This document shows positions 12,192 through 53,670 of a stretch of 64,000 bases of DNA, piece after piece; position 1 is the first letter of the stretch; every line of letters starts with the position of its first letter. Location: the NCBI GenBank assembly GCA_947626865.1, contig CANQTZ010000001.1, positions 3,772 to 67,771 of the forward strand, in the 5' to 3' direction. The translations under genes and the position numbers were made by a program. The stretch is from an uncultured Clostridia bacterium. GTDB taxonomy: Bacteria; Bacillota; Clostridia; TANB77; CAG-508. The notes under the pieces are model-generated. The model saw only the letters and a list, made by a program, of their open reading frames with translations, had not been told where the DNA came from and made no database searches.

Positions 12192-12405
12192 GATTTTTTC
12201 AAAGCATATGCCCCTGAAGTATAAGATTTTCATTGCATGTCTCGGCTTATTACGAAATTTAAGAAATTCTAATTTATTTTATGGCACCCTTTCACAATAG
12301 TGAACTATTTCCATAAAATTGCATAGAATTTCTAAAATTTCTCCATGCACATTCGACATTCCATTCAAATTCTTATACTTCAGAGGCACATACTTTGAAA
12401 AAATT
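12192..12405 (+). repeat. hairpin repeat element, copy 1 (shortened outer arms)
   Basis: Arms GATTTTTTCAAAGCATATGCCCCTGAAGTATAAG / CTTATACTTCAGAGGCACATACTTTGAAAAAAT. The roughly 150-bp core is near-identical to the copies at 20095, 28718 and 53426. Confidence 0.85.
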
Positions 12406-12413
12406 CTATGTAA

Positions 12414-12918
12414 TTATGTATCGAAATAATCACTTATTTCTTGCAAATCCTCAAAATTATGTTGTCTCAAAATTTCATAAGTAATAATAGCCACACTATT
12501 TGACAAATTTAGCGACCTCAATGTAGCCAGCATAGGAATTCTAATCGTTTTCGTATCCAAATATCTTTCCAAAAGCCATTCTGGCAATCCCTTCGTTTCC
12601 TTCCCATACAACACAAAAACCTCATCCATCTTAGAATAATCCACATCCGTATATTTCGTCTTCCCCTTAGTCGTTGCAAAAAACATATAATTATTTTCTG
12701 GCTTATACTTATCCAAAAACTTCTCTAACGAAACATGCTCCTCCACCTCAAGCTTATCCCAATAATCTAGCCCAGCCCTCTTAAGCGACTTTTCATCAAT
12801 TCTAAACCCCAACGGATGAACCAAATGCAATTTTGCACCTGTTATTGCACAGGTCCTTGCAATATTTCCGAGTATTTTGAGGAATTTCTGGTTCTACCAT
12901 AACAATATTTATTTTCAC
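12414..12918 (-). pseudogene. trmL: tRNA (cytidine/uridine-2'-O)-methyltransferase TrmL (SpoU family), frameshifted near 12870
   Basis: The track ORF starts at MHLVHPLGF, which is mid-protein. Upstream, in another frame, is (V)KINIVMVEPEIPQNT. Deleting G12870 restores ...[29 protein letters not shown], the canonical TrmL N-terminus. GTG start at 12918 after GAGGGAG. Confidence 0.8.
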
Positions 12919-12946
12919 ATTTACTCCCTCTTTCTATATTAATTAT

Positions 12947-13045
12947 GTGCCAAATGTACCATTTGGGACAGGCACCAACGATACATCAATGTATCATTTG
13001 GGACAGGCACCAATGGCACATCAATGTGCTTTTTGGGACAGGTAT
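12947..13045 (+). repeat. 35-bp tandem repeat array A1 (about 2.8 units)
   Basis: Units GTACCATTTGGGACAGGCACCAACGATACATCAAT (12956-12990) and GTATCATTTGGGACAGGCACCAATGGCACATCAAT (12991-13025), then the terminal half-unit GTGCTTTTTGGGACAGGTAT. Units are contiguous with no spacers. Confidence 0.9.
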
Positions 13046-13059
13046 AAATAACAAATGTA

Positions 13060-13861
13060 TCATTTTTTTTCACCCCTGATAACGTCCCTTACATATTCAT
13101 ATAAAATAATTCCTGTAGCCACAGATGCATTAAGACTTTCTGTTTTTCCAAGCATTGGAATTTTTACTTTTTTATCTGCCATTTCCTGTATATTAGTTTC
13201 CACGCCATTGGCTTCGTTCCCAATAATAATTACTTTTTTATGATAATCAACATCATAGATTGTATTTTTTGCTTGTAAAGAAGAAACCACTATTTCAAAC
13301 TTGTGTTTTTGAAGCTCTTTTAAGGTATTTTCTAAATTTTCACATTCTATAATCTTAACTCTAAATATGGCTCCCATAGTAGAACGCACAACCTTTGAAT
13401 TATAGCTATCAGCCGAATTTTTAGATATTAATATTTGAGTTAGACCAACACTATCTACAGTCCTTAGTATTGTTCCTAAATTTCCAGGATCTTGCACATT
13501 ATCTAGAGCAACTATAACATCTTGTGTATAATCAATTTCGATATTACTGTTATTTTTCTCTAATATTGCTAGAATTCCTTGAGGTGTCTGTACATCTGAC
13601 ACATATTTAAAAATCTTCTCTGGCACATAAATACATTCATATCTTGCAATTTCATACATCAATTCTTTTGGAATCAACTCATTATTTTCACAATCATCAC
13701 ACAGTACAATTTGCTTAATTAAAGCTTTTTCGCCGAATTGCTTCTGATACTAATTTAACACCTTCTATTACATACTCATTATTTAAATCACGATATTTTT
13801 TGTCTTTCAATTTCCTTATATGCTTAATCAAATCATTTTCTTTACTAGTAATTCTTTGCAT
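13060..13861 (-). pseudogene. TrmH/SpoU-family RNA 2'-O-methyltransferase (RlmB-like), frameshifted near 13735
   Basis: C-terminal 205 aa carry SpoU motifs (NVQDPGNLGTILRT, IIGNEANGV, IPMLGKTESLNASVATGI). Upstream ATG at 13861 after GGAAGGAG encodes MQRITSKENDLIKHIRKLKDKKYRDLNNEYVIEGVKLVSEAI, then reaches a stop. Deleting G13735 joins it in frame (..EAIGEKALIKQIVLCDD..). Confidence 0.8.
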
Positions 13862-13934
13862 TGCTTATCTCCTTCCTTTATAGTTGGTCTTTCAAACTTA
13901 AACCGCACAAATATCAAAACATTTAACAAAACAT

Positions 13935-14025
13935 AACCTGTCCCAAAAAGTACATTGATGTACCATTTGTGCCTGTCCCAGATGATACATTGATGTATCA
14001 TTTGTGCCTGTCCCAAACGGTACAT
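13935..14025 (-). repeat. 35-bp tandem repeat array A2 (inverted relative to A1)
   Basis: AACCTGTCCCAAAAAGTAC, ATTGATGTACCATTTGTGCCTGTCCCAGATGATAC, ATTGATGTATCATTTGTGCCTGTCCCAAACGGTAC. It overlaps the last 9 codons and the stop of mfd. Confidence 0.9.
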
Positions 14026-19865: not shown

Positions 19866-19913
19866 TTTTACCTACCTTTCTTTGTGTATTATATTACAAT
19901 TCTAAATTATAGT

Positions 19914-20056
19914 CAATGTACCATTTGGGATGTGCCATCTGGGACAGGCACCAACGATACATCAATGTGCCGTTTGGGACAGGCACTAATGATACATTGA
20001 TGTGCCGTTTGGGACAGGCACTAATGATACATTGATGTGCTTTTTGGGACAGGTTA
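19914..20056 (+). repeat. 35-bp tandem repeat array B1 (about 4 units)
   Basis: CAATGTACCATTTGGGA, TGTGCCATCTGGGACAGGCACCAACGATACATCAA, then two copies of TGTGCCGTTTGGGACAGGCACTAATGATACATTGA, ending with GTGCTTTTTGGGACAGGTTA. Confidence 0.9.
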
Positions 20057-20094
20057 TTTGGACAATAATATTATAAATTTTTCTTCATACAGCA

Positions 20095-20330
20095 GTTACA
20101 GGATAATGGTTTCAAGGCGAGTTGCCCCTGCAGTATAAGAATTTGAATGAAATGTCGAATGTGACTGGAGAAATTTTAGAAATTCTATGCAATTTTATGG
20201 AAATAGTTCACTATTGTGAAAGGGTGCCATAAAATAAATTAGAATTTCTTAAATTTCGTAACAAGCCGAGACATGTAATGAAATTCTTATACTGCAGGGG
20301 TAGCTCGCCTTGAAACCATTATCCAGTAAC
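20095..20330 (-). repeat. hairpin repeat element, copy 2 (full length, inverted orientation)
   Basis: Arms GTTACAGGATAATGGTTTCAAGGCGAGTTGCCCCTGCAGTATAAGAATT / AAATTCTTATACTGCAGGGGTAGCTCGCCTTGAAACCATTATCCAGTAAC. The core is the reverse complement of the copy 1 core. Confidence 0.9.
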
Positions 20331-20344
20331 ATACAACAGGCTAG

Positions 20345-20405
20345 TAACCCGTCCCAAAAAGTACATTGATGTATCGTTGGTGCCTGTCCCAAATGGCACA
20401 TCACA
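20345..20405 (-). repeat. 35-bp tandem repeat array B2 (inverted relative to B1)
   Basis: TAACCCGTCCCAAAAAGTAC, ATTGATGTATCGTTGGTGCCTGTCCCAAATGGCAC, ATCA. Confidence 0.85.
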
Positions 20406-20480
20406 AATGCCACATTGGCTACTAGACATTTTTTTATTTTTATAGTACAATACTAAAGAATTTTATTAAAGGAGGATTTT

Positions 20481-28717: not shown

Positions 28718-28877
28718 GTTACAGGATAATGGTTTCAAAGCGAGTGTTCCCTTGCAGTATAAGATTTTCATTACATGTCACGGTTTGTTGCGAAATTTAA
28801 GAAATTCTAATTTATTTTATGGCACCCTTTCTAAGTACGTGAACTATTTCCATAAAATTGCATAGAATTTCTAAAAT
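28718..28877 (+). repeat. hairpin repeat element, copy 3 (right arm missing)
   Basis: Starts GTTACAGGATAATGGTTTCAAAGCGAGTGTTCCCTTGCAGTATAAGATTTTC and matches the core up to ..GCATAGAATTTCTAAAAT. It ends exactly at the ATG of ORF 28878. Confidence 0.85.
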
Positions 28878-29615
28878 ATGGCAGATAATCAAGACATAGA
28901 AGACAAAATAATATTAAATAAAGATGGGAATTTAACAAGAATAAGAACAGACAGAGAAAGATATGAAGAAAATTCACAAAACGAGCAACCAAAATATGAT
29001 AAAAATGCACAAATCAGCTTAGAACAAGTTTATGACCATATCAAACCGCATTATAGAAAAGATACAAATTGCATATCACTTTCCAGTAATGCTAATGTTT
29101 CAATTTCTTATGGAAGAGGATTTTATAAAGACAGATATATAATGGTAAAAGTTCCTAAAAATGAAATGGGAGAAAAGGTTATAAATGCTGGGCAATATAT
29201 GTTAGAAGAAATAGAGAAAAAAATCAATGAATATATTTCTCATGCAAATATTGATAATAAATTAGAAAAAGCTTTATTTCAAATAGATAATAGCAAAACA
29301 ATAGATGAATTTAGGGAAATACTAGAAACAACATTCACATCAAAAGAAAAATTAAATCCACATAAAGCAAAATTAAGAAATGGAATTAAATATAAATTAC
29401 CAGTATCAATAATTAGTAATTATCAAGCCTTAAATGAAGAGCAATCATTAGAACTTATACATTATGGAGATATAAGAAAAGAAGAAATTATAGATATACC
29501 GAAAGAAATTGTAGATATTTTTGCTATTTTACAACAGACAGAGGGACAAGACATACAAATTATTATAGATTTAAAAAAACAAATAGTCCGCTTTATAAGA
29601 GATTTAATGAAATAA
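28878..29615 (+). CDS. hypothetical protein (245 aa), no recognisable family
   Basis: Ordinary, non-low-complexity composition. The start codon abuts the truncated repeat, and no clear RBS is visible. Confidence 0.4.
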   Translation: MADNQDIEDKIILNKDGNLTRIRTDRERYEENSQNEQPKYDKNAQISLEQVYDHIKPHYRKDTNCISLSSNANVSISYGRGFYKDRYIMVKVPKNEMGEKVINAGQYMLEEIEKKINEYISHANIDNKLEKALFQIDNSKTIDEFREILETTFTSKEKLNPHKAKLRNGIKYKLPVSIISNYQALNEEQSLELIHYGDIRKEEIIDIPKEIVDIFAILQQTEGQDIQIIIDLKKQIVRFIRDLMK

Positions 29616-29623
29616 AGATATTT

Positions 29624-41255: not shown

Positions 41256-41257
41256 TA

Positions 41258-44200
41258 TTATTCCTCACCTTCATATTTTTTTGTAAAAAATTCCCACGCT
41301 GTTTTATAATCTTCTATTCTATCACATTTATCAAATGGAGCTACATATTCTATAGTACGTTCAATTGGTCCTTCTGGCATAGTATCATCTATTATTGTAC
41401 GATAAAATTTTTCTCCTTCTTTTGCATTTTTTATTTCTTCAAAGTCTTGTCTCTTAAAAATTAAATCTCCCATATTTTTAGAAGAAAATACAATTCTACC
41501 TTTAGCATCATACCAAGTATCTTCTTCATATTTCATCAATACTGGAAACTGTATTTTATAAATTGTACAAAGCTCTTCTAAAGTAATTCCTAATGCAAGT
41601 GAGACAAGAACATCTATTTCAACTAAAGCTTGTCTTCTTTCGTAATCTGTTCGTAATATTCTGTCAAAGGACCATATTGTATTTGAATTTGTATAATATT
41701 TTACATTTAATCTATCATCAAATTTTGACCATGAATCCCTCGAAATTTTCTTATAAGAATTATTCCAAAGGTCAGAATAATCTGTAGTTAAGCAATTTAA
41801 CATTAATAATCTATTAATTATTAATTGATTATATTTTGAACTTAATATAGGTAATTTTCCGATATTATCAAGTGTAAGATTAGTTTTACCCATTATTTTA
41901 ATAAAGAAATCATAAGGCAAAGAAGCACAAGCTCCTGCAAATAAAGTAGCTGTATTAACATCTTCAAAGGAAATTCCAATAGCTCCATTAATGTGTGAAG
42001 TACCTAATGGTATAATTGCTCCCATAAGTGTTCTTTCTTGTGTTAAATTCAACATTTTTCTAAATAGACATCTATAAGTTTCTGTATATTTTCTTCCCCA
42101 TGGCATATTTGGAATACAATTATTGTAATCTATTAAATCACATTTTGGAGAATAATTACATCTTGGATAATAATGTTCATTAATATTTGTTAAATCAATA
42201 TTATCATAATCACCATTAGAAGAATATTTTCGTCTAGTAGTTTTAAATAACGGACAAGCTAAATATAAATGTGGTCCAGAATAAATCATATCTTGTGTAG
42301 TCGTTGCAAAATGTACATTTTTTTTAATTGTTCCATCATTTTGTGCATTAGTCTCATGCCACATTTCACAAATAGATATATGTTTTTCTAAATCTTTGAG
42401 TAAAACTTTCTGTTTTGTAAATTTTGAAAGTATATTTAACATACTTTCTGTATGAATTGGAGTAATCTTAGCTGTTTTATAATTTTCATTTCCATCAAAT
42501 AGTTCAGCAAATAATAATAATTCATCTTTTCCTATATGTAATATTCGATTAGGATGTCCTAATACACTCCATTCTCCTTTGTTATTTTTTAATCCTTCAA
42601 GCTGATTTGTACATTTTTTATCATAACAATCATCTAAAGCATTAACAGAATATAAATTGGCAATCATTTCAAAATCATTAGTTTCTGTATTGGAGTAAAT
42701 ATTTATACTATATACTACATGATTATCTATATCTTGGAATAATTTTTTTACATTCATAAATTGAAAATGTTTTCTTAATTTTGGATACATTATCTCACGT
42801 AATTTTTCACCATTAGGATCATTAAATGGACCATCTGGATGAATAAATGCACTTACTCCATCTATAGCTCTGCAATACATCCAAGCAATAGGTAAAAAAC
42901 ATTTATACAAATTTGTTTGTTGTCCCTTTAGAACATCATAGTTTTGTATAGAATTAAAAAAATTTTGTTGACCACATATATTCGTATATTCGTTTAAATA
43001 AGATAATAATGTTTGATAATCTTTTAATGCATCTTCTCTTCTAAAAGTAGTTTCATTAGCACTCAATTTTCTAACCGCAACTAATGGATTATTATCTGCA
43101 AGAACTCCTTGTTCTTTCCATTCCAGCTTTACCCATGGTGGATTTCCTATCATTAAGTCAAAACCACCTTTCTCTTCAAACAAATCTGCAAATTCTAATT
43201 CCCAATGCATAAAATGATTTTCATTTGCTATTTTTCTGACTATTGCTAAACGTTCTTCTGTTTCACACAATTTATCAAGATTTACATGTCCTAAATCATC
43301 ATATTTTTTTTGAATTTCTTGTGCTATTAAATTTATATTAGTATCGAACATTGAAGTCTGATATGCTGTTTTACCATCTTTATATATGGTAAATTTGCCT
43401 TCTTGTCCTTCTTGTTTAACAGACATGATTCCACCTTCAAGTATTAATGACATATCATAAATATATTCACTTCTTGATGGTAAAAATTCTGCTTTATCTA
43501 TCGGCCAAAACCATAAAGAACACCAGTAATCCATAGCAAATTTTAATCTTGCATAAGGACCTGCATTTTCCATTTTTTCTGATTTATATAAATTTCTATA
43601 AATCATATCTTTTTGTCTAATTGTTGTATGGGAATCTTCAATTCCATCTTCATGCCCATATATAGAAATTTTATCTGCTGTTCTTTCATCAATCTCTTTC
43701 CTTAATTCAATTTGTTTTGACCACAAATTATCTATAATTGAAGATAATCTTAATAGTGATTCTATTTCATCTGGATTATATGGTTTAATAAATTCTTTAT
43801 TCCAATTCTTCATATAATCCAGATTCTCTTTTTCTAATTCTTTTATTACTTTATCCTTATAAGAACACATTCCAGGATCACCTGTAAGGAAATGATAAAT
43901 CTGTTTTTTTTGTTTTTTACTTTCTTTTGTATTTCTTATAGTTCCTGGATTAAGCCTTTTGGGTTCATTATTATGCCATTGAAGTTTTTTATTTGTTGTA
44001 GCTAATTGTTCTGTATTATAAACCTGTCTTCTTGCACCTATTAAAGAATTACCATTTACAATTTGTGTTCCAAACCAAGGAACATACCCACCTTTACAAA
44101 TTGTATTTAACCATAATGAAACTTCCGCAAGTTCTACTGCAGTTGGATTTAAATCAACACCATATATATTTCTGTCTGCAATATACATTTTTACTTTTTG

Positions 44201-46030
44201 TATTTGATCATATCTTTCTTCATATGGTATTAATTCACCTAATTCTTCTTGTTTTTTATTAATATAAGCTTCTGCTAGTTGATTAATTGCTTCATTTAAG
44301 AAGGCTGCACTTCCCATAGCAGGCTCACATATTGTTAATTTTAATATATCATCAGCTGATTTATCTTGTAATAATTCTTTTAGGGCATACTTTACTAAAC
44401 ATTTTGTTAATACTTCAGGTGTATAATATGAAGCAGATTTTTCTCTTTCTCTTCCGGCTAATCTATATATAAATGTACCTTTTTCATATTTACGAGGTTT
44501 GCCTTTATTTATTCCAGACTCATATCTTACTCTTTCTTCTTCTGTATAATTATCAAGTTCAGATTCTGGAATGAAGTATCCAACTTCCAATTCATCAAAA
44601 GAATCTCCTGCTCTTTTAACTTCATACAAAGTCTGTTCAGCAATAAATCCTCTATATGATAACAACGCCTCATATACTGCTCCTAATTGGTTTATTCCTA
44701 AATTAGAATAAGATATTCTTCCTCTACCAGTTCGACTTCCTCTTGATATACTCATTAATCTAAGAATTTTTACCATTGTAGAATTGCGAAGTTTTATCTT
44801 ACTTATCATACTCGTTAACTCTGGATCAAATATATGAGCTTTTAATGGTTCAACAACAAATGCATTATGGATTGATTCCATTTTTTCAGCATTAATTAAT
44901 TCTTCTTGATTGCTAGGATAGCCAGAATAGATAATATCAAATAATTTGTTAATACTATCTCCCAAATAATATCCATTATCTACTTCTTCTATATCTTCAT
45001 TTATTTCATCAACAACATCTCTAAGTGTTTCAAGAGAATAACCTGTTACATATGAAATATCTTTCATTGGAGCATATCCTAATTCAGGTCTTGCCTCAAT
45101 AAACAATACAAACAGCATTCTATACATATATCTTAGGCATTGCATTGTAAGTTCTGAAGCATCTATAGGATTATTATCTAAATCTCTATTTTCATTATTT
45201 TTAAAATAATATAATACTTCATTTCCTAATAATTCTATACATTCCCTCAAAGCATATTTTAAATCTTGAGATATTCCTGCAGCATGTCTATTTGAATTCT
45301 CATTTAATTCATCTAAAAGTGAAGTACCTTCATCTGGACATAATGAATCTTTATGAAGCAAAATTGACATTGCTTGTAAACATGATTCTTCTCTTCTTGA
45401 AAATATTTCTTTTAAATCAAAACCTAAATATCTTTTTTCGTTCCATTTATTTCTATCAATTAAAGAAATTCCATTAATTCCAATAACAATAATCCATCTT
45501 GGTGGATTATCATTTTCAAAGAATGATTTTGTAACCAAATCTTCACAGTTATATTCTTCATTAATGTAACTCTCGATTGACTCTTCTTCTATACTTCCAT
45601 CAAATGCATTTCCATATAAAACATCTTCATCATCTTCTTTATTTTGAGATAAAAGTATCCAAAGTAGAGGATTTCCATTAGTTGATTTTATTTCTTTGTA
45701 TACTGGTACTTTAATATCATTACCTATTGTTTCAAAAAACGGTTCAGCATCATTATATCCCAATGAATTTAAATACTTATCAGCCATCTCTTTTATAATT
45801 AAGGAAATACTATTATTACTTCTAGTTCTTAAATATTTCTCATGCATAGCATAATATGATTTAGCATCTTCTTTAAGCATAGACCATGGAGTTTTAACAT
45901 TTTCACTTGCCCTAGCTGAATCTCTCCATTCTGAAATTTGAGCAGTAGCATTTTCTTCAAATATTGATGAAAAATAATGATTAGTATAATATTCATTATA
46001 ATTATTTATACCTGTATAAATCTTTGCCAT
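41258..46030 (-). CDS. 1590-aa gamma-class N6-adenine DNA methyltransferase (Eco57I/PglX/DrmMI-like)
   Basis: Motif I ICEPAMGSAAFLNEA (about nt 44300-44343), IYGVDLNPTAVELAEVSLWL, motif IV LMIGNPPWVKLEW (about nt 43125-43165). Large flanking regions have no motifs that I recognise. Confidence 0.85.
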   Translation of the reverse strand: MAKIYTGINNYNEYYTNHYFSSIFEENATAQISEWRDSARASENVKTPWSMLKEDAKSYYAMHEKYLRTRSNNSISLIIKEMADKYLNSLGYNDAEPFFETIGNDIKVPVYKEIKSTNGNPLLWILLSQNKEDDEDVLYGNAFDGSIEEESIESYINEEYNCEDLVTKSFFENDNPPRWIIVIGINGISLIDRNKWNEKRYLGFDLKEIFSRREESCLQAMSILLHKDSLCPDEGTSLLDELNENSNRHAAGISQDLKYALRECIELLGNEVLYYFKNNENRDLDNNPIDASELTMQCLRYMYRMLFVLFIEARPELGYAPMKDISYVTGYSLETLRDVVDEINEDIEEVDNGYYLGDSINKLFDIIYSGYPSNQEELINAEKMESIHNAFVVEPLKAHIFDPELTSMISKIKLRNSTMVKILRLMSISRGSRTGRGRISYSNLGINQLGAVYEALLSYRGFIAEQTLYEVKRAGDSFDELEVGYFIPESELDNYTEEERVRYESGINKGKPRKYEKGTFIYRLAGREREKSASYYTPEVLTKCLVKYALKELLQDKSADDILKLTICEPAMGSAAFLNEAINQLAEAYINKKQEELGELIPYEERYDQIQKVKMYIADRNIYGVDLNPTAVELAEVSLWLNTICKGGYVPWFGTQIVNGNSLIGARRQVYNTEQLATTNKKLQWHNNEPKRLNPGTIRNTKESKKQKKQIYHFLTGDPGMCSYKDKVIKELEKENLDYMKNWNKEFIKPYNPDEIESLLRLSSIIDNLWSKQIELRKEIDERTADKISIYGHEDGIEDSHTTIRQKDMIYRNLYKSEKMENAGPYARLKFAMDYWCSLWFWPIDKAEFLPSRSEYIYDMSLILEGGIMSVKQEGQEGKFTIYKDGKTAYQTSMFDTNINLIAQEIQKKYDDLGHVNLDKLCETEERLAIVRKIANENHFMHWELEFADLFEEKGGFDLMIGNPPWVKLEWKEQGVLADNNPLVAVRKLSANETTFRREDALKDYQTLLSYLNEYTNICGQQNFFNSIQNYDVLKGQQTNLYKCFLPIAWMYCRAIDGVSAFIHPDGPFNDPNGEKLREIMYPKLRKHFQFMNVKKLFQDIDNHVVYSINIYSNTETNDFEMIANLYSVNALDDCYDKKCTNQLEGLKNNKGEWSVLGHPNRILHIGKDELLLFAELFDGNENYKTAKITPIHTESMLNILSKFTKQKVLLKDLEKHISICEMWHETNAQNDGTIKKNVHFATTTQDMIYSGPHLYLACPLFKTTRRKYSSNGDYDNIDLTNINEHYYPRCNYSPKCDLIDYNNCIPNMPWGRKYTETYRCLFRKMLNLTQERTLMGAIIPLGTSHINGAIGISFEDVNTATLFAGACASLPYDFFIKIMGKTNLTLDNIGKLPILSSKYNQLIINRLLMLNCLTTDYSDLWNNSYKKISRDSWSKFDDRLNVKYYTNSNTIWSFDRILRTDYERRQALVEIDVLVSLALGITLEELCTIYKIQFPVLMKYEEDTWYDAKGRIVFSSKNMGDLIFKRQDFEEIKNAKEGEKFYRTIIDDTMPEGPIERTIEYVAPFDKCDRIEDYKTAWEFFTKKYEGEE

Positions 46031-46031
46031 T

Positions 46032-48857
46032 TTACACCTCCATTAATACTGCTACTACTTTTATAAATGGATGATTTTCTGCCTTTACACTATCATCATA
46101 CCATTTCCTATAATTATCAAAAACTTCTTCTATTTTATTTTTCTTTAATAATTTTGTTCTAGTCAATTGCTCATCAAATAAACTCAATTGATTATATTCT
46201 AAATGTTTTTTCTTTAATTCTTCAAGTTTGTCAGCATATGTAATTACTTCTTCAGCAACTTTATCATCATATTCTTTAAATTTATCGCCCAAAATCTCTT
46301 TTACTTTCTCTATAGCTATATTCATATTTGCTTTTGCCTCATTTAATTCATTTTCTGTAATTATACTTTCATTAGGTACTGATTTATTGCTAAGTTTTGT
46401 TTTTTCTAATAAATCTTTAATAGACAATATATCTAATATACAATTATCTTTAACTTTTATTCCATACCATTCATCAATAACTGGCGTTGAACGTCTATTA
46501 AATATTGAGCCAGAAATGATATAAACAAGTGATTTTTCAGAATTATCTGATTTAAAGCCTAAAACTGGAGCTTCTCCCCTTCCAAATAATAATTTTGATT
46601 TGTCATTTATCCAGTTATAAATTGGATGTAATCCCCACAAAAATTGCGTTTGTGGCCATGCTTCTTTTGACAAATCATTTTGCATACACCTATCCATTTC
46701 CTGCATAATGAATTCTTTATTAGGACTTAATTTCAATTTATTATTATCTGCTAAAACTTCGTCAGGTACTTGAGATCTTAATCTTCTTTTCATTTCATCT
46801 GTTAATTCAATTTCTACACTATCAGCAATTCCTAATTCATGAGCTATATGTTCTGATTTTTCATTAAAAACAGATAGTGATTGAAGTAAGTATTCTTTAT
46901 CTGTATACAATGTAGAATCATTAATTGTTTCAGAATAATTATTATCAATCTCATCTGTTTTCATTAATAATTCGAAAGGATCAAATTCTTCAGAAATCGT
47001 TTCTAATTTTTTTTCAAATTCTTCACTAGAAATATTATTCTCTATACTTTCAGCAACTTCCTGTTCTTCTTCTTCAATATTAAACTTACCCATCAACAAA
47101 GTAGGATCTCCTATATTCTTATAAGCTTGTTCTTCTTTTTGAATAAGGACTTCCATTATTCTAGAATCACCTTTTATTTTGGAATTAGAACTTTGAATTA
47201 AGAAATATCTAATATTAGGCTTTTCTTTTTGACCATATCTATCAATTCTTCCATTTCTTTGTTGAAATACCATTAATGACCATGGAATATCAAAATGAAT
47301 TAATCTATGGCTCAAATAATGTAAATTAATACCTTCTGAAGCAACATCTGAAGCAACTAATATTCTAATTTTAGATTCTTCTCTGCCAAAATCTTCTACT
47401 ATCTGTTGTTGCTCAATATCTGACATTCCGCCATACATTTCTTGAACTTGACCATTATTCATGTTTAGATCGTTTCTTAAATGATTAGCAAGCCATTTCA
47501 TTGTTTCAATTCTTTCAGTAAAAATAACTATTCTATCATTTTTTTCTTTTTTCCAGTTATACTCTGTACTATTTAATAATTCTATCAATTTTTGATATCT
47601 TGAAAATGATTTTTCATCAATTCTATTTAAAAGTTCTTTTAGTCCTTTTAAAGTATTTATATCTTTGAATTCATTTCCAAATCTCTTTTCAAGTTTCTTT
47701 ATTCTTTCATTTATACTTTTTATACACGCAACAGGTGAAGAAAATAGAGCTTTTTCAAGACTTGTTTTAAATAATTGTCCAGTAATTCTCTTATTTTTGT
47801 CATCCATTTCTAGTTTCATGTTAACAAAGTAATCATATGCTTCTTCCTCTAAAATTGAAGCTCTACATTTTTCTATATTAACCTCTCTCTCCTTAAACGA
47901 AGCTTGTATCTGATTACGAATATCTTTTTTAAATCTTCTTACACATAATCCTTTAATATCATCTTTTGTATAATCATGAGGATTAGCAATAGCTGTTGGG
48001 TCAAGCATATTCATTAATGATGCAAAACTTTCTGCCTTTCCGTCATGCGGAGTAGCAGATAATAAAATTAATGTATCACTTTTACTAGCTAATAATTGAG
48101 CAAGTTTTGCTCTTTGAGCTTGTCTCATTCCTCTGTCTGCAACATTATGTGCTTCATCAATTACTATAATATCCCAATATGCATTCTCTAAATGTGTTCT
48201 ATATTCAATATCTCTTTTTAAAGTATCGACAGATATAATAGTTTTATCATAATAGAAAAAAGGATTATAATTTGATGGCAATGTATTTCTTATTTTTTGA
48301 ATTTTATTTGAATCCAAACGCATTAATGGAATAGAAAAACGATTCCACATCTCTTTTTGAAACTGTGTCATCATACTTTTTACTGTAACAACAAGTATTC
48401 TTTTCCCTTTACCTCTTAATATTAATTCAGACATCAAAATTCCAGCTTCTAGTGTTTTACCAAGTCCTACACTATCTGCTATAAGAATTCTTTGTCTATG
48501 ATTTTTTAAACTCATAGCAGTTGGAATCAATTGAAAGTCCATTAAATCCATTGCTGCTTTATAACCTATATGAATCTTACTATCTGTTGGTATTTTTTGT
48601 CTTAAATTACTTTCAATATATAATTTTGATTTTTTAAAGAACGATGATGTATCAGCTACTAACTTAGTATTTGCTGGATTTATAATAGTAATATTATCCT
48701 CCAAATCCTCTAAAAAGATACTTTCCTTATCTTTCACTAATGGCGATATTCCAATGCAATAAATTGCTCTATTTCCGAAGCTATTTCTATCTATTTTTTT
48801 AATCATCCATTCTTCATCACGTACTAATATCCTTAATCCAGGTGCTAATTCTTCCAT
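46032..48857 (-). CDS. SNF2-family helicase/translocase (DrmD-like)
   Basis: 941 aa. ADSVGLGKT (about nt 48452-48480), VIDEAHN, LLSATPHDG, ILVASDVASEGINL, FQQRNGRIDRYGQ. Confidence 0.9.
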   Translation of the reverse strand: MEELAPGLRILVRDEEWMIKKIDRNSFGNRAIYCIGISPLVKDKESIFLEDLEDNITIINPANTKLVADTSSFFKKSKLYIESNLRQKIPTDSKIHIGYKAAMDLMDFQLIPTAMSLKNHRQRILIADSVGLGKTLEAGILMSELILRGKGKRILVVTVKSMMTQFQKEMWNRFSIPLMRLDSNKIQKIRNTLPSNYNPFFYYDKTIISVDTLKRDIEYRTHLENAYWDIIVIDEAHNVADRGMRQAQRAKLAQLLASKSDTLILLSATPHDGKAESFASLMNMLDPTAIANPHDYTKDDIKGLCVRRFKKDIRNQIQASFKEREVNIEKCRASILEEEAYDYFVNMKLEMDDKNKRITGQLFKTSLEKALFSSPVACIKSINERIKKLEKRFGNEFKDINTLKGLKELLNRIDEKSFSRYQKLIELLNSTEYNWKKEKNDRIVIFTERIETMKWLANHLRNDLNMNNGQVQEMYGGMSDIEQQQIVEDFGREESKIRILVASDVASEGINLHYLSHRLIHFDIPWSLMVFQQRNGRIDRYGQKEKPNIRYFLIQSSNSKIKGDSRIMEVLIQKEEQAYKNIGDPTLLMGKFNIEEEEQEVAESIENNISSEEFEKKLETISEEFDPFELLMKTDEIDNNYSETINDSTLYTDKEYLLQSLSVFNEKSEHIAHELGIADSVEIELTDEMKRRLRSQVPDEVLADNNKLKLSPNKEFIMQEMDRCMQNDLSKEAWPQTQFLWGLHPIYNWINDKSKLLFGRGEAPVLGFKSDNSEKSLVYIISGSIFNRRSTPVIDEWYGIKVKDNCILDILSIKDLLEKTKLSNKSVPNESIITENELNEAKANMNIAIEKVKEILGDKFKEYDDKVAEEVITYADKLEELKKKHLEYNQLSLFDEQLTRTKLLKKNKIEEVFDNYRKWYDDSVKAENHPFIKVVAVLMEV

Positions 48858-48982: not shown

Positions 48983-51682
48983 TTAATATTCCACTTCTAA
49001 CTTACTTCCTTTTTGCGTTTTAGATACTATTATTTTTTTATCCAATCTTTCCTTTAATTCAGTCACATGGCTTATTATACCAATTAACTTATTATCTCCT
49101 GCTAGCTTAATCAAAGTATTTATTGCTTGTTCCCTAGATTCCATATCTAACGTTCCAAAACCTTCATCTATAAACAAAGTATCAATTACCACTCCTCCTG
49201 AATAACTTTGTATAATATCAGATAATCCTAAAGCAAGAGCAAGAGCTGCTTTGAATGATTCCCCTCCAGATAGTGATTTTACATCTCTTATTTTTCCGTT
49301 GTAATTATCTAAAACATCTAAGTCAAGAGCCATTTTTTCTGATATTTTATCTGATGATTTCTTTCTTAGTAGCATATATCTATTATCTGTCATATTAATT
49401 AATCTCTTATTAGCTTCATTGATTATCATATCAAAATATGTAGCTTGTACATATTGTTCAAATGCAATTTTTCTCTTACCTACTGCTGTTCCACTTGCTA
49501 ATTTAGATAATTCATCAATTCTTGCAACTTTAACCATCTGTTCTTTTAGTAAGTCTGCTGTTTTTTGCAAAGCTTTATTAAATTTTTCATTTGAATCTAA
49601 GTTACTTTTAAGTGTAAGTTGTATTTTCTTTTGCTCTTTTTGTTTATTTATAAATTCCTCTAATTGTGCTTCATCTTTAGAAATATCAATAATTTCTTTT
49701 TTAGATATTTCTTTTTCTAATGATTCTAATTTTGTTTTGTTGGATATTTGCGCTTCCTTATAATTTTCAATTCTTTCTTTTATTTTAGCTATTTCATCTT
49801 CACCTAACAAATTCTTTTTATAATCTTTTTCGTTTTTAAATCCAAGTGTTTTTATTGTTTCAATAAAATCTGCATATTTTTCTTGATACTCTTTATCTGT
49901 AATTTCTTTGATTTTTTTTGTGTTATTAAGTAATGTTTTGTTTTTAATCATTTGGTCAGCATCTTCTTTTATTCTTTTATTGAACTCATCTTTAAATTCG
50001 TCAAATTCAAATTCAGCAATATCAGTGTATTTTTCAGTAACTTTATAATAAGTAGTTTCAAATTTATCTTTTATATTGGTTTTCTTTTCATCTATTTCGT
50101 TTTTTTGTTTTTGTATTTTTTCTACATATTCTTCTAAATTAAATTTGCTTTTTTTACTTTCAGGAATTTCATTAAGAATAGAATCGTATTTTGTTTTTAC
50201 AACTGTTATTTGCTCTTTATATTTAGAATTTTCTTTTTCTAGTTTTTCTTTTTCTTCTTTTAATTCTTCTAATTCTTCTTTTGTAAGAACGCTTTTGCTT
50301 TTCTTTGCTTTTACAGGATGCTCTATACTACCACATACAGGACAAGGTTTACCTTTTTCAAGTTTTTCTGCAATAATACCTGCTTGTTCTTTGAAAAAAG
50401 CATCTTCTTGTTTTAAATATTCTTTTACTTTATCTTGATATTTTTTATTACTTTTTTCATATTTCTTACTAAGTGTTTCTTTTTCTTTGTTTAGTTTAAT
50501 TAAGTCATCAATTTTGACATTTAATTCATGTATTTTTTTGTTTTCATCTTGTATTTGGGTGTATTCCTTTATTATTGTTTTTAATTCTTCTATTCTTTTT
50601 GTATTTGCATTATTTTTCTTTTCTGTTTCTTTTTCAAGTTCAATTTCTTCTTCAAGCTTCTTTATTTGTTTATTATTTTTTTGTATTTCTTCATCTAATT
50701 TTTCAAGTATTTTTTCTTTTGGAAGTACAGATGCAAGTATTTTTTCATTTGTTTTTACTTTTTTTTCATCTTCTTTAATACTTTTTCCTTGCTCTTTTAA
50801 TTCGTTTTTGATTATTTTTAATTTTTGATATTCTTCTACTTTTTTATTTTGCCCTTTTATTTTTGTTATTTGGCTTTCTAATTTTTTTGTATCTTTTGCG
50901 ATTTTATCTATTTCTTTTTCAAAGTCTTTGTATTCCTGCTTTTGCTTTTCTATTTCATTTGCTAGACTCTTTAAAATTTGTTCTATATCTGCTTCAACTA
51001 TTTTTTTATAATCAATTAGTTCAACACTTATTGGTTTTTCTTTCCATATTATATTTTCTGCGTTTGTTTCAAATGTTGTTTTTAGAGTTTCTAATTCTGC
51101 TCTATTATTTTTAGCAAATTCATTTAAATTTTTAGTTATTATATTATATATTTCTGTTTCAAATATTTTTCTAAAGACTTCTGTTCTATCATCACTTTTT
51201 GCAAATAACACATTTATAAATTCTCCTTGGGCTAACATTGCAATTTGCTTAAATTGTTTTGAGTTAATGCCAATTATTTCAATTATTTTTTCATTTACAT
51301 TTGAAATTTTTGTTATTATTTTATCTTCATATGATAGTGATGCTTCTGCAATGTTTTTTGTCACACCTTCCCCTCTATTCTTTTGTCTTTCATAAGATGG
51401 TGTCCTTTTTACAGTATATATTTTGTCTTTATGTTCAAATATTAATTCTACATAAGTATCTTCGGTTGTTGCAAAATCACTTCTAAGCGAAGATATTGGT
51501 CTATTGGATCCACTTACATCATTAAATAGTGCAAATGATATTGCATCAAATATAGTAGTTTTTCCTGCACCAGTATCACCGGTAACTAAAAATAAACCAC
51601 TGTTACCTAATTTTTCAAAATCAATGATTGTTTCTTCTCTATATGGTCCAAATGCGGACATTGTTAATTTTATTGGTTTCAT
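48983..51682 (-). CDS. sbcC: exonuclease SbcC (Rad50-like ATPase)
   Basis: 899 aa. N-terminal Walker A GDTGAGKTT, long coiled-coil with zinc hook CPVCG, C-terminal LSGGE and FIDEGFGTLD. Confidence 0.92.
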   Translation of the reverse strand: MKPIKLTMSAFGPYREETIIDFEKLGNSGLFLVTGDTGAGKTTIFDAISFALFNDVSGSNRPISSLRSDFATTEDTYVELIFEHKDKIYTVKRTPSYERQKNRGEGVTKNIAEASLSYEDKIITKISNVNEKIIEIIGINSKQFKQIAMLAQGEFINVLFAKSDDRTEVFRKIFETEIYNIITKNLNEFAKNNRAELETLKTTFETNAENIIWKEKPISVELIDYKKIVEADIEQILKSLANEIEKQKQEYKDFEKEIDKIAKDTKKLESQITKIKGQNKKVEEYQKLKIIKNELKEQGKSIKEDEKKVKTNEKILASVLPKEKILEKLDEEIQKNNKQIKKLEEEIELEKETEKKNNANTKRIEELKTIIKEYTQIQDENKKIHELNVKIDDLIKLNKEKETLSKKYEKSNKKYQDKVKEYLKQEDAFFKEQAGIIAEKLEKGKPCPVCGSIEHPVKAKKSKSVLTKEELEELKEEKEKLEKENSKYKEQITVVKTKYDSILNEIPESKKSKFNLEEYVEKIQKQKNEIDEKKTNIKDKFETTYYKVTEKYTDIAEFEFDEFKDEFNKRIKEDADQMIKNKTLLNNTKKIKEITDKEYQEKYADFIETIKTLGFKNEKDYKKNLLGEDEIAKIKERIENYKEAQISNKTKLESLEKEISKKEIIDISKDEAQLEEFINKQKEQKKIQLTLKSNLDSNEKFNKALQKTADLLKEQMVKVARIDELSKLASGTAVGKRKIAFEQYVQATYFDMIINEANKRLINMTDNRYMLLRKKSSDKISEKMALDLDVLDNYNGKIRDVKSLSGGESFKAALALALGLSDIIQSYSGGVVIDTLFIDEGFGTLDMESREQAINTLIKLAGDNKLIGIISHVTELKERLDKKIIVSKTQKGSKLEVEY

Positions 51683-52821
51683 CTACATATACTCCTATTT
51701 ATTATATCTTTTATAATCTTTTTTTGTTCATCATCTAGTCTGATATTATTTTGAAATTCATAAAAGTCGTCAAATAATTCAAATTCATCTTTTTGTTTTA
51801 ATTCTTCTATGTTTTCTAACTCTACATTTTGGATACTTGATTTTATATTAGAAATTTCTAAACTTAATGTGTTTGGATAGACTCTTCTAATTTGACCTAT
51901 TGCATCATATACAGGTTCTTTGTTTGTAATAATAGCTTTAATATAATCTTGGGTATTTGTATCTTTATAATTTTCTTTATTTAATAATTCTTCTATTGGA
52001 CCTTTGATTACTCTCATATCTCTTAATGGTTTTAAAGGAATTAATTTATATTCGACTGATTTGTTGTTTTTTATGTTGATTAATACTGCTGATTTATTAT
52101 GATTTGCTTCTGAAAATGAATATTTTAACATTGTTCCTGAATATCTAATTGTATCTTTTCCTATTCGTTGTGGCCCATGAATATGGCCTAAGGCAACATA
52201 GTCAAATTTATCGAAATTAGATGAATCTACATTTTCTATTCCACCAACATTTAGTGTTGTTTCTGATTCACATGTTTCAGGACTTTTATTTCCTGCTGTT
52301 ACAAATTGATGTGCCATTAATATGTTTACTTTATTCTCATCAATTTTTTCATTATCCACTATTAATTTTATGGCTTCATTATATGTATCTATTTTTTCAG
52401 TTTCAAAGTATTGTTTGACTTCAATTGGTTTTATAAATGGAAGCATATAAATATTGATTTTATCTGATAGTTCTATACTTGTTATTTTGCCGTTGTATGT
52501 TGTTTGGATGTATAAACCATCATTTTCAAATATTTTGCTTCCAAAATTTAATCTTTCTTTTGAATCATGATTTCCTGAAATGATAAAGACTTTAATTTTT
52601 AATATTTTAATTAATTTATTTAAGAAATCATTTAATACATCTACAGCATCTGCTGGAGGTATACTTCTATCATATATGTCTCCAGATATTAAGACTGCAT
52701 CTACTTTTTCTTTTTTTGCAATTTTTATAATTTCTTTTAGTATGTATTCTTGATCTTCTAATAGTGATTGCTCATATATTATTTTGCCTATGTGTAAATC
52801 GGATAAATGTAATAATTTCAT
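51679..52821 (-). CDS. sbcD: exonuclease SbcD (Mre11-like nuclease)
   Basis: MKLLHLSDLHIGK, GDIYD, GNHD, GHIHG phosphoesterase motifs. 4-nt overlap with sbcC. Confidence 0.95.
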   Translation of the reverse strand: MKLLHLSDLHIGKIIYEQSLLEDQEYILKEIIKIAKKEKVDAVLISGDIYDRSIPPADAVDVLNDFLNKLIKILKIKVFIISGNHDSKERLNFGSKIFENDGLYIQTTYNGKITSIELSDKINIYMLPFIKPIEVKQYFETEKIDTYNEAIKLIVDNEKIDENKVNILMAHQFVTAGNKSPETCESETTLNVGGIENVDSSNFDKFDYVALGHIHGPQRIGKDTIRYSGTMLKYSFSEANHNKSAVLINIKNNKSVEYKLIPLKPLRDMRVIKGPIEELLNKENYKDTNTQDYIKAIITNKEPVYDAIGQIRRVYPNTLSLEISNIKSSIQNVELENIEELKQKDEFELFDDFYEFQNNIRLDDEQKKIIKDIINRSICR

Positions 52822-52890
52822 GTTAAATTTCTTTCCTTTCTTGCTTCATTAAAAGGCACATATAGAAATGAAAGCTTACATTCTTTCAAA

Positions 52891-53337
52891 CTATTTTTTC
52901 CTTTCATTATTTTTCCATTCCATTGTATATATTTTTTCTCCTGTTTTTTCTTGCAGATTAATGGCTTTGTTTTTAAATCCCATTGCTACAAAAAATAATA
53001 TAGCATTTATGTTTTTTTCATATACTTTTAGTTTTAAGTAGTTGTTTTTGTTCTGACAATAATGCATTAATTTGCTACCAATTCCTTGTCTTATGGAGTC
53101 TTTTCTAACAAATATGCTAGTTATTTCTTGATTTTTATCTATGCTAATGAATGCTTTTATTTCGTTTGTACTGGTGCAATATATGTATGTTTCCGCTTCA
53201 AATAAATACTCATTTTTTACTCTGTTGAAATTTTCTAACCAATGATCTTTTTCGATAAAATAATGAGCATCGAAATTTCCTTTTGTCCATAAAGTCATTA
53301 CTTTTGTTGTGTCTTCTTTTTTAAATTTTCTAATCAT
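52891..53337 (-). CDS. GNAT-family N-acetyltransferase
   Basis: 148 aa with the acetyl-CoA motif IRQGIGSKLM. Confidence 0.8.
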   Translation of the reverse strand: MIRKFKKEDTTKVMTLWTKGNFDAHYFIEKDHWLENFNRVKNEYLFEAETYIYCTSTNEIKAFISIDKNQEITSIFVRKDSIRQGIGSKLMHYCQNKNNYLKLKVYEKNINAILFFVAMGFKNKAINLQEKTGEKIYTMEWKNNERKK

Positions 53338-53425
53338 TCGTTCCTCCCTATTATTGAATGATTATATAATTTTACTAATATTTTGTCAATGTTGAAAAAT
53401 TGTGTTATCCTTGCTATTTTTACTG

Positions 53426-53670
53426 GCTAGTTACAGCTTAATGGTTTCAAGTGTGTGTCCCCACATAATATAAGATTTTCATTGCATGTCTCGGCGTTAT
53501 TTCGAAAATTAAGAAATTCTAATTTATTTTATGGCACCCTTTCACAACAGTGAACTATTTCCATAAAATTGCATAGAATTTCTAAAATTTCTCCATACAC
53601 ATTCGACATTCCATTCAAAATCTTATATTATGTGGGGACACGCACTTAAAACCATTAAGCTGTAACTAGC
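53426..53670 (+). repeat. hairpin repeat element, copy 4 (full length)
   Basis: Arms GCTAGTTACAGCTTAATGGTTTCAAGTGTGTGTCCCCACATAATATAAGATTTTC / AAAATCTTATATTATGTGGGGACACGCACTTAAAACCATTAAGCTGTAACTAGC around the conserved core. Confidence 0.9.

Follow-up and report, generated by a model that had tools for sequence, protein, structure and literature searches.

Probable intergenic foldback MITEs with a conserved centre and changing complementary arms in uncultured gut Clostridia

The stretch of DNA analysed here (64 kb in length, hereafter called the window) carries three full copies and one half copy of an intergenic palindromic repeat, together with a 32-bp 'ends-only' miniature. These four copies and the miniature are MITEs. 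The explanation that we consider probable is that they belong to a foldback MITE family whose arms are kept complementary by processes acting at the DNA level, and whose constrained centre is read in its folded form. A first-pass annotation of the window had noted that the arms of the copies differ in a compensatory manner, and had taken this as a sign of a maintained stem that would fit a structured RNA or a transposase-recognised DNA hairpin. The family examined here carries a warning in this respect, because compensatory changes between the copies of a palindromic repeat are, taken alone, no proof of a selected RNA stem. The step from covariation to a selected stem and onward to a structured RNA is thus weaker than it looks. 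The elements and the neighbouring repeats in the window are as follows.

Copy 1: 12182-12414, plus strand, full element of 233 bp; core module at 12239-12351; covariance-model core match of 106 bits.
35-bp repeat array (TTTGGGACAGGCAC unit): 19910-20057, plus strand, left of copy 2 and unrelated to the element.
Copy 2: 20095-20330, minus strand, full element of 236 bp in inverted orientation; core module at 20160-20272.
Inverted partner array of the 35-bp repeat: 20345-20436, minus strand, right of copy 2.
Copy 3: 28718-28877, plus strand, half element; core match of 84 bits.
Miniature: 30115-30146, no strand assigned, 32-bp hairpin made of two termini and a 4-nt loop (GTTACAGTATAATG-GTGT-CATTATACTGTAAC), without the core.
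Copy 4: 53430-53666, plus strand, full element of 237 bp as defined by its terminal repeats; core module at 53488-53601.

The four similar copies had already been recognised, and a covariance model of the core returns exactly those four matches in the window and nothing else. The earlier boundaries hold for copies 2 and 3, whereas copy 1 extends to 12182-12414 and the terminal repeats of copy 4 lie at 53430-53666; the palindrome of copy 4 reaches 53426-53670, which is 4 nt beyond the terminal repeats into the flanks. Copies 1 and 2 align over 178 nt at 95% identity, copies 2 and 4 over 131 nt at 94%, and copies 3 and 2 over 83 nt at 94%, within 64 kb of DNA that has a G+C content of 24-33%. 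The ends of copy 1 have diverged (GTTACTATG...CTATGTAAT). Copy 3 retains the left terminal repeat, the left arm, the apex and the 3' strand of stem P3 and lacks the right half, and the ATG of the open reading frame (ORF) at 28878-29615 directly follows it. This half state is also present, with 100% identity, in a second metagenome (locus L076). One contig stops within the copy 3 apex.

As described before, three of the copies occupy divergent intergenic regions: copy 2 separates feoA from a gene for a small export protein, copy 3 separates a WG-repeat gene from ORF245, and copy 4 is flanked by a GNAT gene and an HTH gene. The neighbours of copy 1 are two minus-strand genes. A YhgA-like 'Transposase_31' gene adjoins copy 1, and this gene is not found beside the other copies. 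The two 35-bp repeat arrays enclose copy 2 together with its own target duplication, and in one related genome inverted arrays of a second repeat bracket every copy at a constant distance.

The status of these sequences as mobile elements rests on their ends. The terminal inverted repeats begin GTTACAGGATAATGG. Copies 2 and 4 carry GTTACAGGATAATGGTTTCAA and its complement at their two ends, and copy 3 carries this terminus on its left; the miniature has it too, as do two further copies (L010/L013) that belong to the metagenome-assembled genome (MAG) of another species. The terminal 21-mer was matched 6 times against an expectation of 0.00, and chance therefore cannot account for the repeat. 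Direct repeats of 8 bp that agree at 7/8 positions flank copy 1 (12174-12181 TATGTATT / 12415-12422 TATGTATC), copy 2 (20087-20094 ATACAGCA / 20331-20338 ATACAACA) and the miniature (30107-30114 TTCTTATA / 30147-30154 CTCTTATA), and the duplication around L010 is identical at 8/8 positions. At this spacing, direct repeats with at least 7/8 matching positions have a background rate of 0.0014-0.0026 per site. When all subfamilies were scanned, 12/67 copies showed a candidate duplication compared with 3 in controls, although these were mostly unconvincing because palindromic flanks and low complexity confound the scan. Terminal inverted repeats, flanking direct repeats, lengths of 233-237 bp (32 bp for the miniature), the lack of coding capacity and the presence at many AT-rich, unrelated intergenic sites together match the definition of prokaryotic MITEs (PMC10969869), as the earlier MITE-like label had anticipated.

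Some observations fit this classification less comfortably. Copy 4, whose flanks GCTA / TAGC are palindromic, has no target duplication, and neither does L013. An autonomous partner carrying the same termini, which the first-pass annotation had suggested looking for, was not encountered in the window, in 77 related loci (about 560 kb) or in viral contigs, where 8 single terminal-repeat matches are as many as chance predicts. An extra terminal repeat in L010 was considered as an insertion sequence end and was rejected, as it is a right-arm fragment; L010 also contains a half copy at 3870-3937. Blastn searches of plasmid and phage collections gave no match, and apex searches of viral contigs yielded 0 matches with one pattern and 1 chance match (L018) with the other. 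When the ORFs lying up to 4 kb from the copies were all compared with one another, in search of a recurrent transposase, invertase or partner protein, only orthologous neighbourhoods emerged.

The copies in the window all fold as one long hairpin, with z values of about -18 to -21. For copy 4, the RNA fold is a single hairpin of -116.1 kcal/mol (z = -20.7), the opposite strand folds with -127.5 (z = -18.1), and the DNA fold is -71.7 (z = -17.9); the DNA fold of the miniature is -12.3 kcal/mol (z = -7.8). The arm pairs quoted in the first-pass annotation prove correct. Outer arms of copy 2 (CCCCTGCAG.../...CTGCAGGGG) and of copy 4 (CCCCACATAA.../...TTATGTGGGG) are fully complementary, with an additional base in copy 4 being mirrored in the opposite arm, and the pair in copy 1 contains a single C.A mismatch. 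GGCGAG/CTCGCC belongs to copy 2, and GTGTGTG/CACGCAC, with one G.T, to copy 4. Over greater lengths, the arms of copy 2 (50 nt) are 94% complementary and those of copy 4 (59 nt) 93%. Each arm resembles its own partner (57/64 positions in copy 4, 52/60 in copy 2), whereas copies 2 and 4 agree at only 45/64 positions. As had been supposed, this is a real repeat family and not a decaying one, and pairing is actively kept in both the arms and the inner stems.

The core is composed of stems P1-P3, a 6x6 bubble (CACCCT/CTATTT) and a larger bubble in which CTCGG... lies opposite ...CATTCG. P1 and the loop together vary in length by 5 nt, with the bubble and P2 remaining constant, a pattern that agrees better with a site recognised in folded form than with one read as a duplex. 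Within one MAG, three copies carry wholly unrelated arms inside a conserved right border, and such arms are not easily explained by point mutation and conversion. Further copies of the variable arms, as expected if they derive from target DNA, were sought in the sampled DNA and none were found.

Using two apex patterns, we collected the core at 74 loci (17 in GTDB genomes and 57 in metagenomes), all from uncultured gut Clostridia. The collection amounts to 78 copies (67 distinct), which occupy unrelated and exclusively intergenic sites. Because the search patterns fixed the apex bubble and part of P2, the invariance of these positions is partly a matter of ascertainment. Pairing is kept in 95.8% of the inner-stem cells, and double changes occur in 12/24 pairs. 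The number of double-change cells is 102, compared with a shuffled mean of 26 (0/500 shuffles as high), and the covariation score of 0.22 falls to 0.02-0.05 when the pairing register is slid. The covariation is almost purely of the Watson-Crick type, with G.U in 4/1270 cells. The two strands have 25 and 17 isolated mismatches that would be wobble pairs, which reveals no strand asymmetry. Likewise, the core runs with the genes in 8 tandem gene contexts and against them in 6, and hence exhibits no orientation bias.

The elements also invert in place. At one locus (locus X), located between ypeB and a SASP gene, a 170-bp segment that is 100% identical between assemblies is present one way in 4 assemblies and the other way in 6, with identical flanks. 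The inverted segment is bounded by a perfect 13-bp inverted repeat, and locus X thus displays the hallmark of an inverton, an inverted-repeat-bounded segment found in both orientations in one species. The pairs L003/L014, L050/L072 and L054/L075 are flipped as well, and both orientations were seen, across different samples, at about 4/11 of the loci sampled more than once. These inversions are taken from short-read assemblies, in which long inverted repeats such as those of L054/L075 could make the orientation an assembly choice; this doubt does not apply to locus X, where the perfect repeat measures no more than 13 bp. The breakpoints lie in the inverted repeats that happen to be present, namely the element's own arms at locus X and the outer 35-bp arrays at L054/L075. 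Two loci of the same strain from another sample (L076 and L077) are identical to the window and share its orientation, with copy 4 unflipped, and are therefore uninformative on inversion of the window's own copies. One arm has been caught in the act of being replaced: in L050 the large bubble is overwritten by the reverse complement of the opposite arm, and the ortholog L072 is still asymmetric.

Watson-Crick-only changes, the lack of strand or orientation bias, the in-place flips and the overwritten arm all point to concerted evolution of the arms at the DNA level, and therefore conversion can explain much of the arm 'covariation' without invoking RNA. Most likely, this signal reflects arm-to-arm conversion of DNA in combination with a need for the DNA to fold, and arm complementarity is probably maintained by copying between arms.

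Comparisons between species reveal a different regime for the centre. At the orthologous sites L006/L007, which represent two species, the core is identical at 115/119 positions, coding flanks are about 83% identical, and the outer arms are only 27-60% identical and yet are still paired within each species. In L003/L014, identity is 96.7% in the core and 87.5% in the flanks. The core therefore diverges less between species than the genes beside it, whereas the arms turn over, and the same core is found inside differing outer arms across genomes. Such conservation at orthologous sites suggests a function at the host level, beyond the picture of a selfish element. Ordinary MITEs have conserved ends and an interior that drifts. 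The element reverses this pattern, since its centre is the most conserved part and its ends differ between subfamilies, a trait that also sets it apart from what the MITE explanation would ordinarily predict.

In the foldback MITE explanation, the elements would be short, non-coding, non-autonomous DNA transposons with GTTACAGGATAATGGTTTCAA and its complement as termini, inserted by a transposase that is encoded elsewhere and that duplicates 8 bp of target. Each element would form one long DNA palindrome with a small asymmetric region in the middle. Within a copy, one arm might be copied onto the other by recombination or template switching between them, and the same process could flip the centre in place. 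Both the centre and the foldability of the whole element would be under constraint, and we infer that the centre is probably read as a folded hairpin or cruciform by a protein, which might be the mobilising enzyme or a host factor. A conserved centre flanked by arms that turn over and nevertheless stay paired would imply such a factor, reading folded nucleic acid, in these little-studied uncultured spore-forming gut Clostridia. A bolder extension, which we offer only tentatively, is that the centre of ~80-115 nt (P3, P2, 6x6 bubble and P1, with the larger bubble) is an undescribed folded-DNA module that is read by a dedicated protein, selected at fixed sites in different gut Clostridia species, and enclosed again and again in new complementary arms. 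If so, the unrelated arms within conserved borders, the arm overwriting and the flip-flop inversion would be traces of a mechanism that renews palindromes, and the element would be more than a MITE, namely a palindrome system that renews itself and has a function, whether selfish or for the host.

Other readings share part of this evidence. The centre might be a domesticated site, bound or processed by a chromosomal host protein and selected at fixed loci, with transposition responsible only for its initial spread. Such a site would resemble the IHF site in the BIME/RIP elements of Escherichia coli or in Correia elements, and it would accommodate a core that exceeds the flanking genes in conservation between species and is kept identical within differing arms, Watson-Crick-only pairing (expected if both strands must fold), and the related genome in which all copies hold a fixed position between inverted arrays. 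We nonetheless regard it as unlikely: there is no candidate protein and no positional rule relative to genes, half copies (copy 3 and L010 3870-3937) and the erased-bubble copy L050 persist, and conversion between copies could also yield core identity. A structured RNA, in the form of a small RNA gene or a cis-acting RNA element whose pairing is selected at the RNA level, is disfavoured and seems to us quite unlikely. The covariation across three stems, the conserved internal loops, the very stable predicted RNA folds and the conservation of the core beyond that of neighbouring genes would all be expected of an RNA, and the reverse-strand 6x6 bubble is purine-rich (AAAUAG/AGGGUG) and could conceivably form non-canonical pairs. 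However, an RNA would not predict that 102 double changes are accompanied by only 4 G.U cells, that wobble-like mismatches split 25 versus 17 between strands, that orientation relative to transcription is random (8 versus 6), or that elements flip within species and have an arm overwritten. Of the first-pass argument, the maintained stem survives and the structured RNA is the weaker part. There is also no promoter or terminator at a conserved distance, with the spacing of promoter-like hexamers not being conserved, and the 11-codon apex ORF is out of frame among copies. The earlier impression that the repeat matches no named RNA family is supported, as only a tRNA-Met in the window passes Rfam gathering thresholds; in E-value mode the element matches only models of long-hairpin miRNA precursors, which are spurious and score far under the threshold (60.6 versus 230 bits).

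The in-place flips raise the prospect of a phase-variable switch, in which an invertible segment with an outward promoter or terminator toggles neighbouring genes. Like the invertible promoters (invertons) of gut bacteria, the elements are intergenic, have inverted repeats at their borders and occur in both orientations in one species, in different samples at the repeatedly sampled loci noted above; 3/4 of the window copies lie between divergent genes, and promoter-like sites point outward from copy 4 (TCGACA-17-TATTAT and GAGACA-16-TATTAT). We find a switch improbable, however, because the element is almost wholly palindromic, such that flipping alters little, and forms a dispersed repeat family. 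No invertase or recombinase was found among the window ORFs or as a recurrent neighbour of the copies, breakpoints follow any inverted repeat rather than a single site, hexamer spacing varies between subfamilies, and the neighbours are housekeeping or spore genes and not surface genes. Least credible of all is a single-strand DNA element of the IS200/IS605 (PATE) or REP/RAYT kind, whose HUH tyrosine transposase would read the apex hairpin, and we consider it very improbable. Such enzymes do read a conserved imperfect hairpin with unpaired bases, PATEs are likewise non-autonomous and depend on hairpins for recognition, and the element termini contain TTAC, which we take to be the IS608 target. 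In contrast to PATEs, which have two small subterminal hairpins and neither terminal inverted repeats nor target duplications, the element is one 230-bp hairpin with true terminal inverted repeats and 8-bp duplications, and no Y1 transposase was seen in the window. The duplications therefore largely refute the IS200/IS605-type ends suggested at first.

Several candidate signals within the element were rejected. An apex micro-ORF (ATGGCACCC...TAA) does not keep its frame across copies, because apex lengths range from 33 to 38 nt. A sigma-70 promoter in the apex (TTCACA-17-TAAAAT) shifts in spacing with loop length in other subfamilies, and outward arm promoters do so with arm length. Resemblances to a sigma-54 site (TGGCAC), a parS-like site (TTTCAC/GTGAA), a Spo0A box (TGTCGAA), a T-loop and a T-box are each restricted to one subfamily or wrongly spaced. 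No intrinsic terminator was predicted at copy 4.

Returning to the foldback MITE explanation, the closest parallels are found among other palindromic repeats. Correia elements (CREE/NEMIS) of Neisseria are likewise MITEs that are short, rich in AT and non-coding, occur in multiple intergenic copies and form one hairpin through their long inverted repeats, and the element here also inverts in place and has an asymmetric centre. Correia elements duplicate TA, whereas an 8-bp duplication is seen here; there is no sequence relation, the termini differ from the 26-bp terminal repeats of the Neisseria type, no IHF-like site was identified in the element, and it is the centre that is conserved across species while the termini vary by subfamily. 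The resemblance is one of behaviour and not of membership, and the element does not qualify as a CREE. Correia elements have been reported with promoters, an internal IHF site and inversion (PMC10969869). The ERIC/IRU, YPAL and related sequences of enterobacteria are intergenic imperfect palindromes of 120-170 bp or more (described in part in PMC10969869). They share with our family a species-dependent copy number, occurrence in either orientation and retention at orthologous sites, but they belong to another host phylum and lack sequence similarity, and the element here is longer (about 235 bp), with a three-stem, bubble-containing core and Watson-Crick-only covariation.

REP/BIME elements (including the IHF-binding RIP/RIB) and REPINs with their RAYT present palindromic units in inverted pairs around an asymmetric motif and look retained by the host, as does the element here. 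The 35-bp arrays around copy 2 and the arrangement of all copies in the related genome resemble the REP/BIME layout. However, REP units are 20-40 bp and lack target duplications, whereas our element has terminal repeats and 8-bp duplications, and no RAYT gene was seen. Integron attC sites also keep their pairing while their sequence varies, which generates apparent covariation in a DNA hairpin. In attC sites the base (R'/R'' boxes) is conserved and the tip is variable, whereas here the tip is conserved and the base is variable; no integrase is encoded among the window ORFs and there is no cassette array, and the element is not an attC site.

Repeats of this type break short-read assemblies and can mimic phase variation in screens for invertons. 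Palindromes of about 235 bp are substrates of SbcCD in E. coli. How such palindromes persist, flip and are renewed is a tractable question of genome stability, and the SbcCD genes of this host adjoin copy 4.

The repeat copies proposed in the first-pass annotation were confirmed as one element by pairwise identity and by a covariance model of the core, which detects these four in the window and no more. Copies 1 and 2 (the latter inverted, at 20095-20330) are 95% identical over 178 nt, copies 2 and 4 (53430-53666) are 94% identical over 131 nt, and copy 3 (28718-28877), a half copy, is 94% identical to copy 2 over 83 nt, after which similarity ends. Every full copy is a single long imperfect palindrome. 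For example, copy 4 is predicted to fold as RNA into a single hairpin of -116.1 kcal/mol (z = -20.7), its opposite strand folds at -127.5 kcal/mol (z = -18.1), and the corresponding DNA fold reaches -71.7 kcal/mol (z = -17.9). The arm pairs originally quoted are also right, and an extra base in copy 4 is mirrored in the opposite arm.

The ends of the element read GTTACAGGATAATGG. Its outermost 21 nt, GTTACAGGATAATGGTTTCAA, bound copies 2 and 4 on both sides as inverted repeats, and copy 3 has them on its left side. A window search with this terminus (6 matches versus 0.00 expected) also exposed a fifth, miniature relative at 30115-30146, a 32-bp hairpin consisting of the two termini alone. Direct repeats of 8 bp lie immediately outside the termini; the background frequency of 7/8 matches at this spacing is 0.14-0.26% of positions in the window.

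Direct repeats of 8 bp immediately outside the termini (left / right)
Copy 1: TATGTATT / TATGTATC
Copy 2: ATACAGCA / ATACAACA
Miniature: TTCTTATA / CTCTTATA
L010, a copy in a rabbit-gut MAG: GAAAAAAG / GAAAAAAG

Delimited by its target duplications, copy 1 spans 12182-12414, and its ends have diverged. Copy 4 carries no target duplication and has palindromic flanks (GCTA/TAGC), as if arm-to-arm conversion had run into the flanking DNA. Half copies are known at two places, copy 3 in the window and positions 3870-3937 of L010; the latter is a solitary right arm with the right terminal repeat and no core, the mirror case of copy 3. An ORF of 245 amino acids without a Pfam match (28878-29615) begins exactly where copy 3 is cut off, and an Rrf2 regulator gene and the 32-bp miniature follow within 1.3 kb. 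A 1709-bp contig from another metagenome (ERZ27249467) is 100% identical to window positions 28823-30531 and terminates within the copy 3 apex, so the repeat disrupts short-read assemblies.

Terminal repeats, target duplications, small size, absence of coding capacity and occurrence at many unrelated intergenic sites are the hallmarks of prokaryotic MITEs (PMC10969869). All of these are present, and the element is classed as a MITE, one of the two readings that had been suggested from the sequence. The accompanying comparison with IS200/IS605-type ends did not hold, because the 8-bp target duplications exclude elements of that type. Searches of the window, the related loci and viral contigs found no autonomous partner with matching termini. 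Among known systems the nearest are Correia elements, from Neisseria, and the ERIC class, with which the element has no sequence relation. Both groups consist of hairpin-shaped MITEs located between genes, which may contain promoters or an IHF site, and Correia elements are capable of inversion (PMC10969869). What sets the element apart from both is a deeply conserved centre with bubbles, set within fast-changing arms. Its target duplication is 8 bp, whereas that of Correia elements is TA. At some loci its behaviour resembles that of an inverton, although no invertase was found among the window's ORFs or recurring near copies, and there is no fixed site. The element is not an IS200/IS605 PATE or an attC site, no Rfam family matches it, and plasmid and phage collections contain no match.

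An exact apex pattern recovered 17 loci in species-representative genomes, all of them uncultured Clostridia or Clostridium MAGs from guts, and a looser pattern recovered 57 metagenome loci. The two scans together yield 78 copies, of which 67 are distinct. No recurrent gene was found beside the copies, and all share one architecture.

Architecture common to all copies, from the apex outwards
P1, apex stem: UUCA...UGAA, with a variable tip
Symmetric 6x6 bubble: CACCCT facing CTATTT
P2 stem: TTTTATGG/CCATAAAA
Small loop: between P2 and P3
P3 stem: AGAAATTCT-like
Larger bubble: often CTCGG... facing ...CATTCG
Outer arms: long, varying among subfamilies and often among copies, near-perfectly complementary inside each copy

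Compensatory pairing, first proposed from the window copies, holds in an alignment of 52 copies to the core model. Of the cells in the 24 P1-P3 pairs, 95.8% are paired, and 12 of these pairs show two-sided changes. Double-change cells number 102 versus a shuffled mean of 26 (a value reached in none of 500 shuffles), and the covariation score is 0.22 compared with 0.02-0.05 when the pairing register is slid. Pairing is thus maintained well beyond the four window copies, which deals with the condition for refutation set in the first-pass annotation. The suggestion that this reflects a structured RNA is disfavoured by the kind of covariation observed. RNA stems under selection normally accept G.U pairs on their own strand; only 4 of 1270 P1-P3 cells are G.U, many core changes are transversions (A-T to T-A, G-C to C-G), and isolated arm mismatches that would be wobbles number 25 for one strand versus 17 for the other. 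On both strands the pairing is strictly Watson-Crick, as would be expected of copying at the DNA level or of a requirement that each strand be able to fold. Where the neighbouring genes share a direction, the core points the same way in eight cases and the opposite way in six. By gene context, 14 copies lie between tandem genes, 8 between divergent and 4 between convergent ones.

Direct evidence points to processes acting at the DNA level. Between ypeB and a SASP gene in one species, a 170-bp segment bounded by a 13-bp inverted repeat, AAAGAACACTAAA, is 100% identical but inverted against identical flanks, with four assemblies in one orientation and six in the other. Since a perfect 13-bp repeat is shorter than any assembly k-mer, this flip is not an arbitrary assembler choice. 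The orthologous pair L003/L014, from two species, is likewise inverted, with 96.7% identity in the core versus 87.5% in the flanks. L050/L072 and L054/L075 are further inverted pairs, the latter possibly an assembly artefact because its breakpoint lies within long outer repeats. One case of arm overwriting is also seen. In L050 the reverse complement of the opposite arm has taken the place of the larger bubble, which is hence now paired; the asymmetry is kept in the ortholog L072 and in relatives. The 48-bp outer layer of L006 is a perfect palindrome, of which the ortholog L007 has a decayed version. Inside one copy the arms differ from each other at 2-3 of ~50 positions, and about one third of positions in the same arm stretch differ between copies. 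Recombination or template switching between inverted arms, which would produce both inversion and conversion, is the mechanism proposed here. The best reading, to which we give moderately good odds, is a foldback MITE family in which arm 'covariation' is largely DNA-level concerted evolution around a constrained centre.

At the orthologous L006/L007 sites, from two species, the core matches at 115 of 119 positions, compared with ~83% in the coding flanks and 27-60% in the outer arms. In ordinary MITEs the ends rather than the middle are conserved, whereas here the core is better conserved than the outer arms. P1 and its loop together vary in length by 5 nt, yet the bubble and P2 are unchanged, an invariance partly imposed by the search patterns. 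This combination favours, and we argue for, a module that is read when folded, not as a duplex site. The element would be of greater interest if its centre turned out to be a module recognised as folded DNA by a dedicated reader. In MAG JAAVZW01, three copies (L002, L015 and L017) have perfectly complementary arms of 28-35 bp that are mutually unrelated, and share ~10 nt, TACTCTAYTG, immediately beyond the right arm. None of these arms has a third copy in the sampled DNA. Mutation plus conversion does not readily account for this pattern.

The window is ordinary low G+C (24-33%) chromosome of a spore-forming Clostridium, with genes that include smc, mfd, feoAB, tatD, acpS, sbcCD, an FtsK/SpoIIIE-family gene and a probable defence island. 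In E. coli, the SbcCD nuclease cuts DNA hairpins and long palindromes. The sbcC and sbcD genes (48983-52821) are ~600 bp away from copy 4, separated from it by a single GNAT gene, and the host thus retains 235-bp palindromes despite SbcCD. The probable defence island (32853-48857, minus strand) encodes a UvrD-like helicase, a 2099-aa DEAD-box helicase with an MrfA Zn-binding domain, a 1590-aa Eco57I/N6-methylase protein and an SNF2 helicase, and by composition appears to resemble DISARM. A YhgA-like 'Transposase_31' gene (Rpn-type PD-(D/E)XK; 11192-11995) lies 187 bp from copy 1 and was not found near the other copies; it is therefore probably unrelated to the element. A 72-bp tandem repeat (63217-63674; five copies, 61-86% identity) resides within an ORF (63182-63892) that has no Pfam match.

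A second repeat family in the window has a 35-bp unit, approximately ATGTGCCGTTTGGGACAGGCACTAATGATACATTG, with 13 matches versus 0.13 expected, and forms short arrays.

Inverted pairs of 35-bp arrays
12941-13049 / 13933-14025: brackets a SpoU-methylase gene
19910-20057 / 20345-20436: brackets hairpin copy 2
55941-56000 / 56120-56210: brackets 121 nt of AT-rich DNA

The bracketed SpoU-methylase ORF (13060-13677) is full length, and the adjacent one (12414-12830) is a 138-aa fragment covering profile positions 31-142; the pair may represent a duplication or a disrupted gene. Copy 2, carrying its own target duplication, is nested between its arrays. In a related gut genome (ERZ825670 / ORLY01; the 14.7-kb L062, L060, L037, L023 and others), most intergenic regions contain an analogous 35-bp unit, GGGGTCGGTTCCATTTTTGCCCTTT, which usually directly follows a stop codon and is oriented with the gene. 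Each hairpin core in that genome is flanked, at a fixed distance, by an inverted pair of 35-bp arrays.
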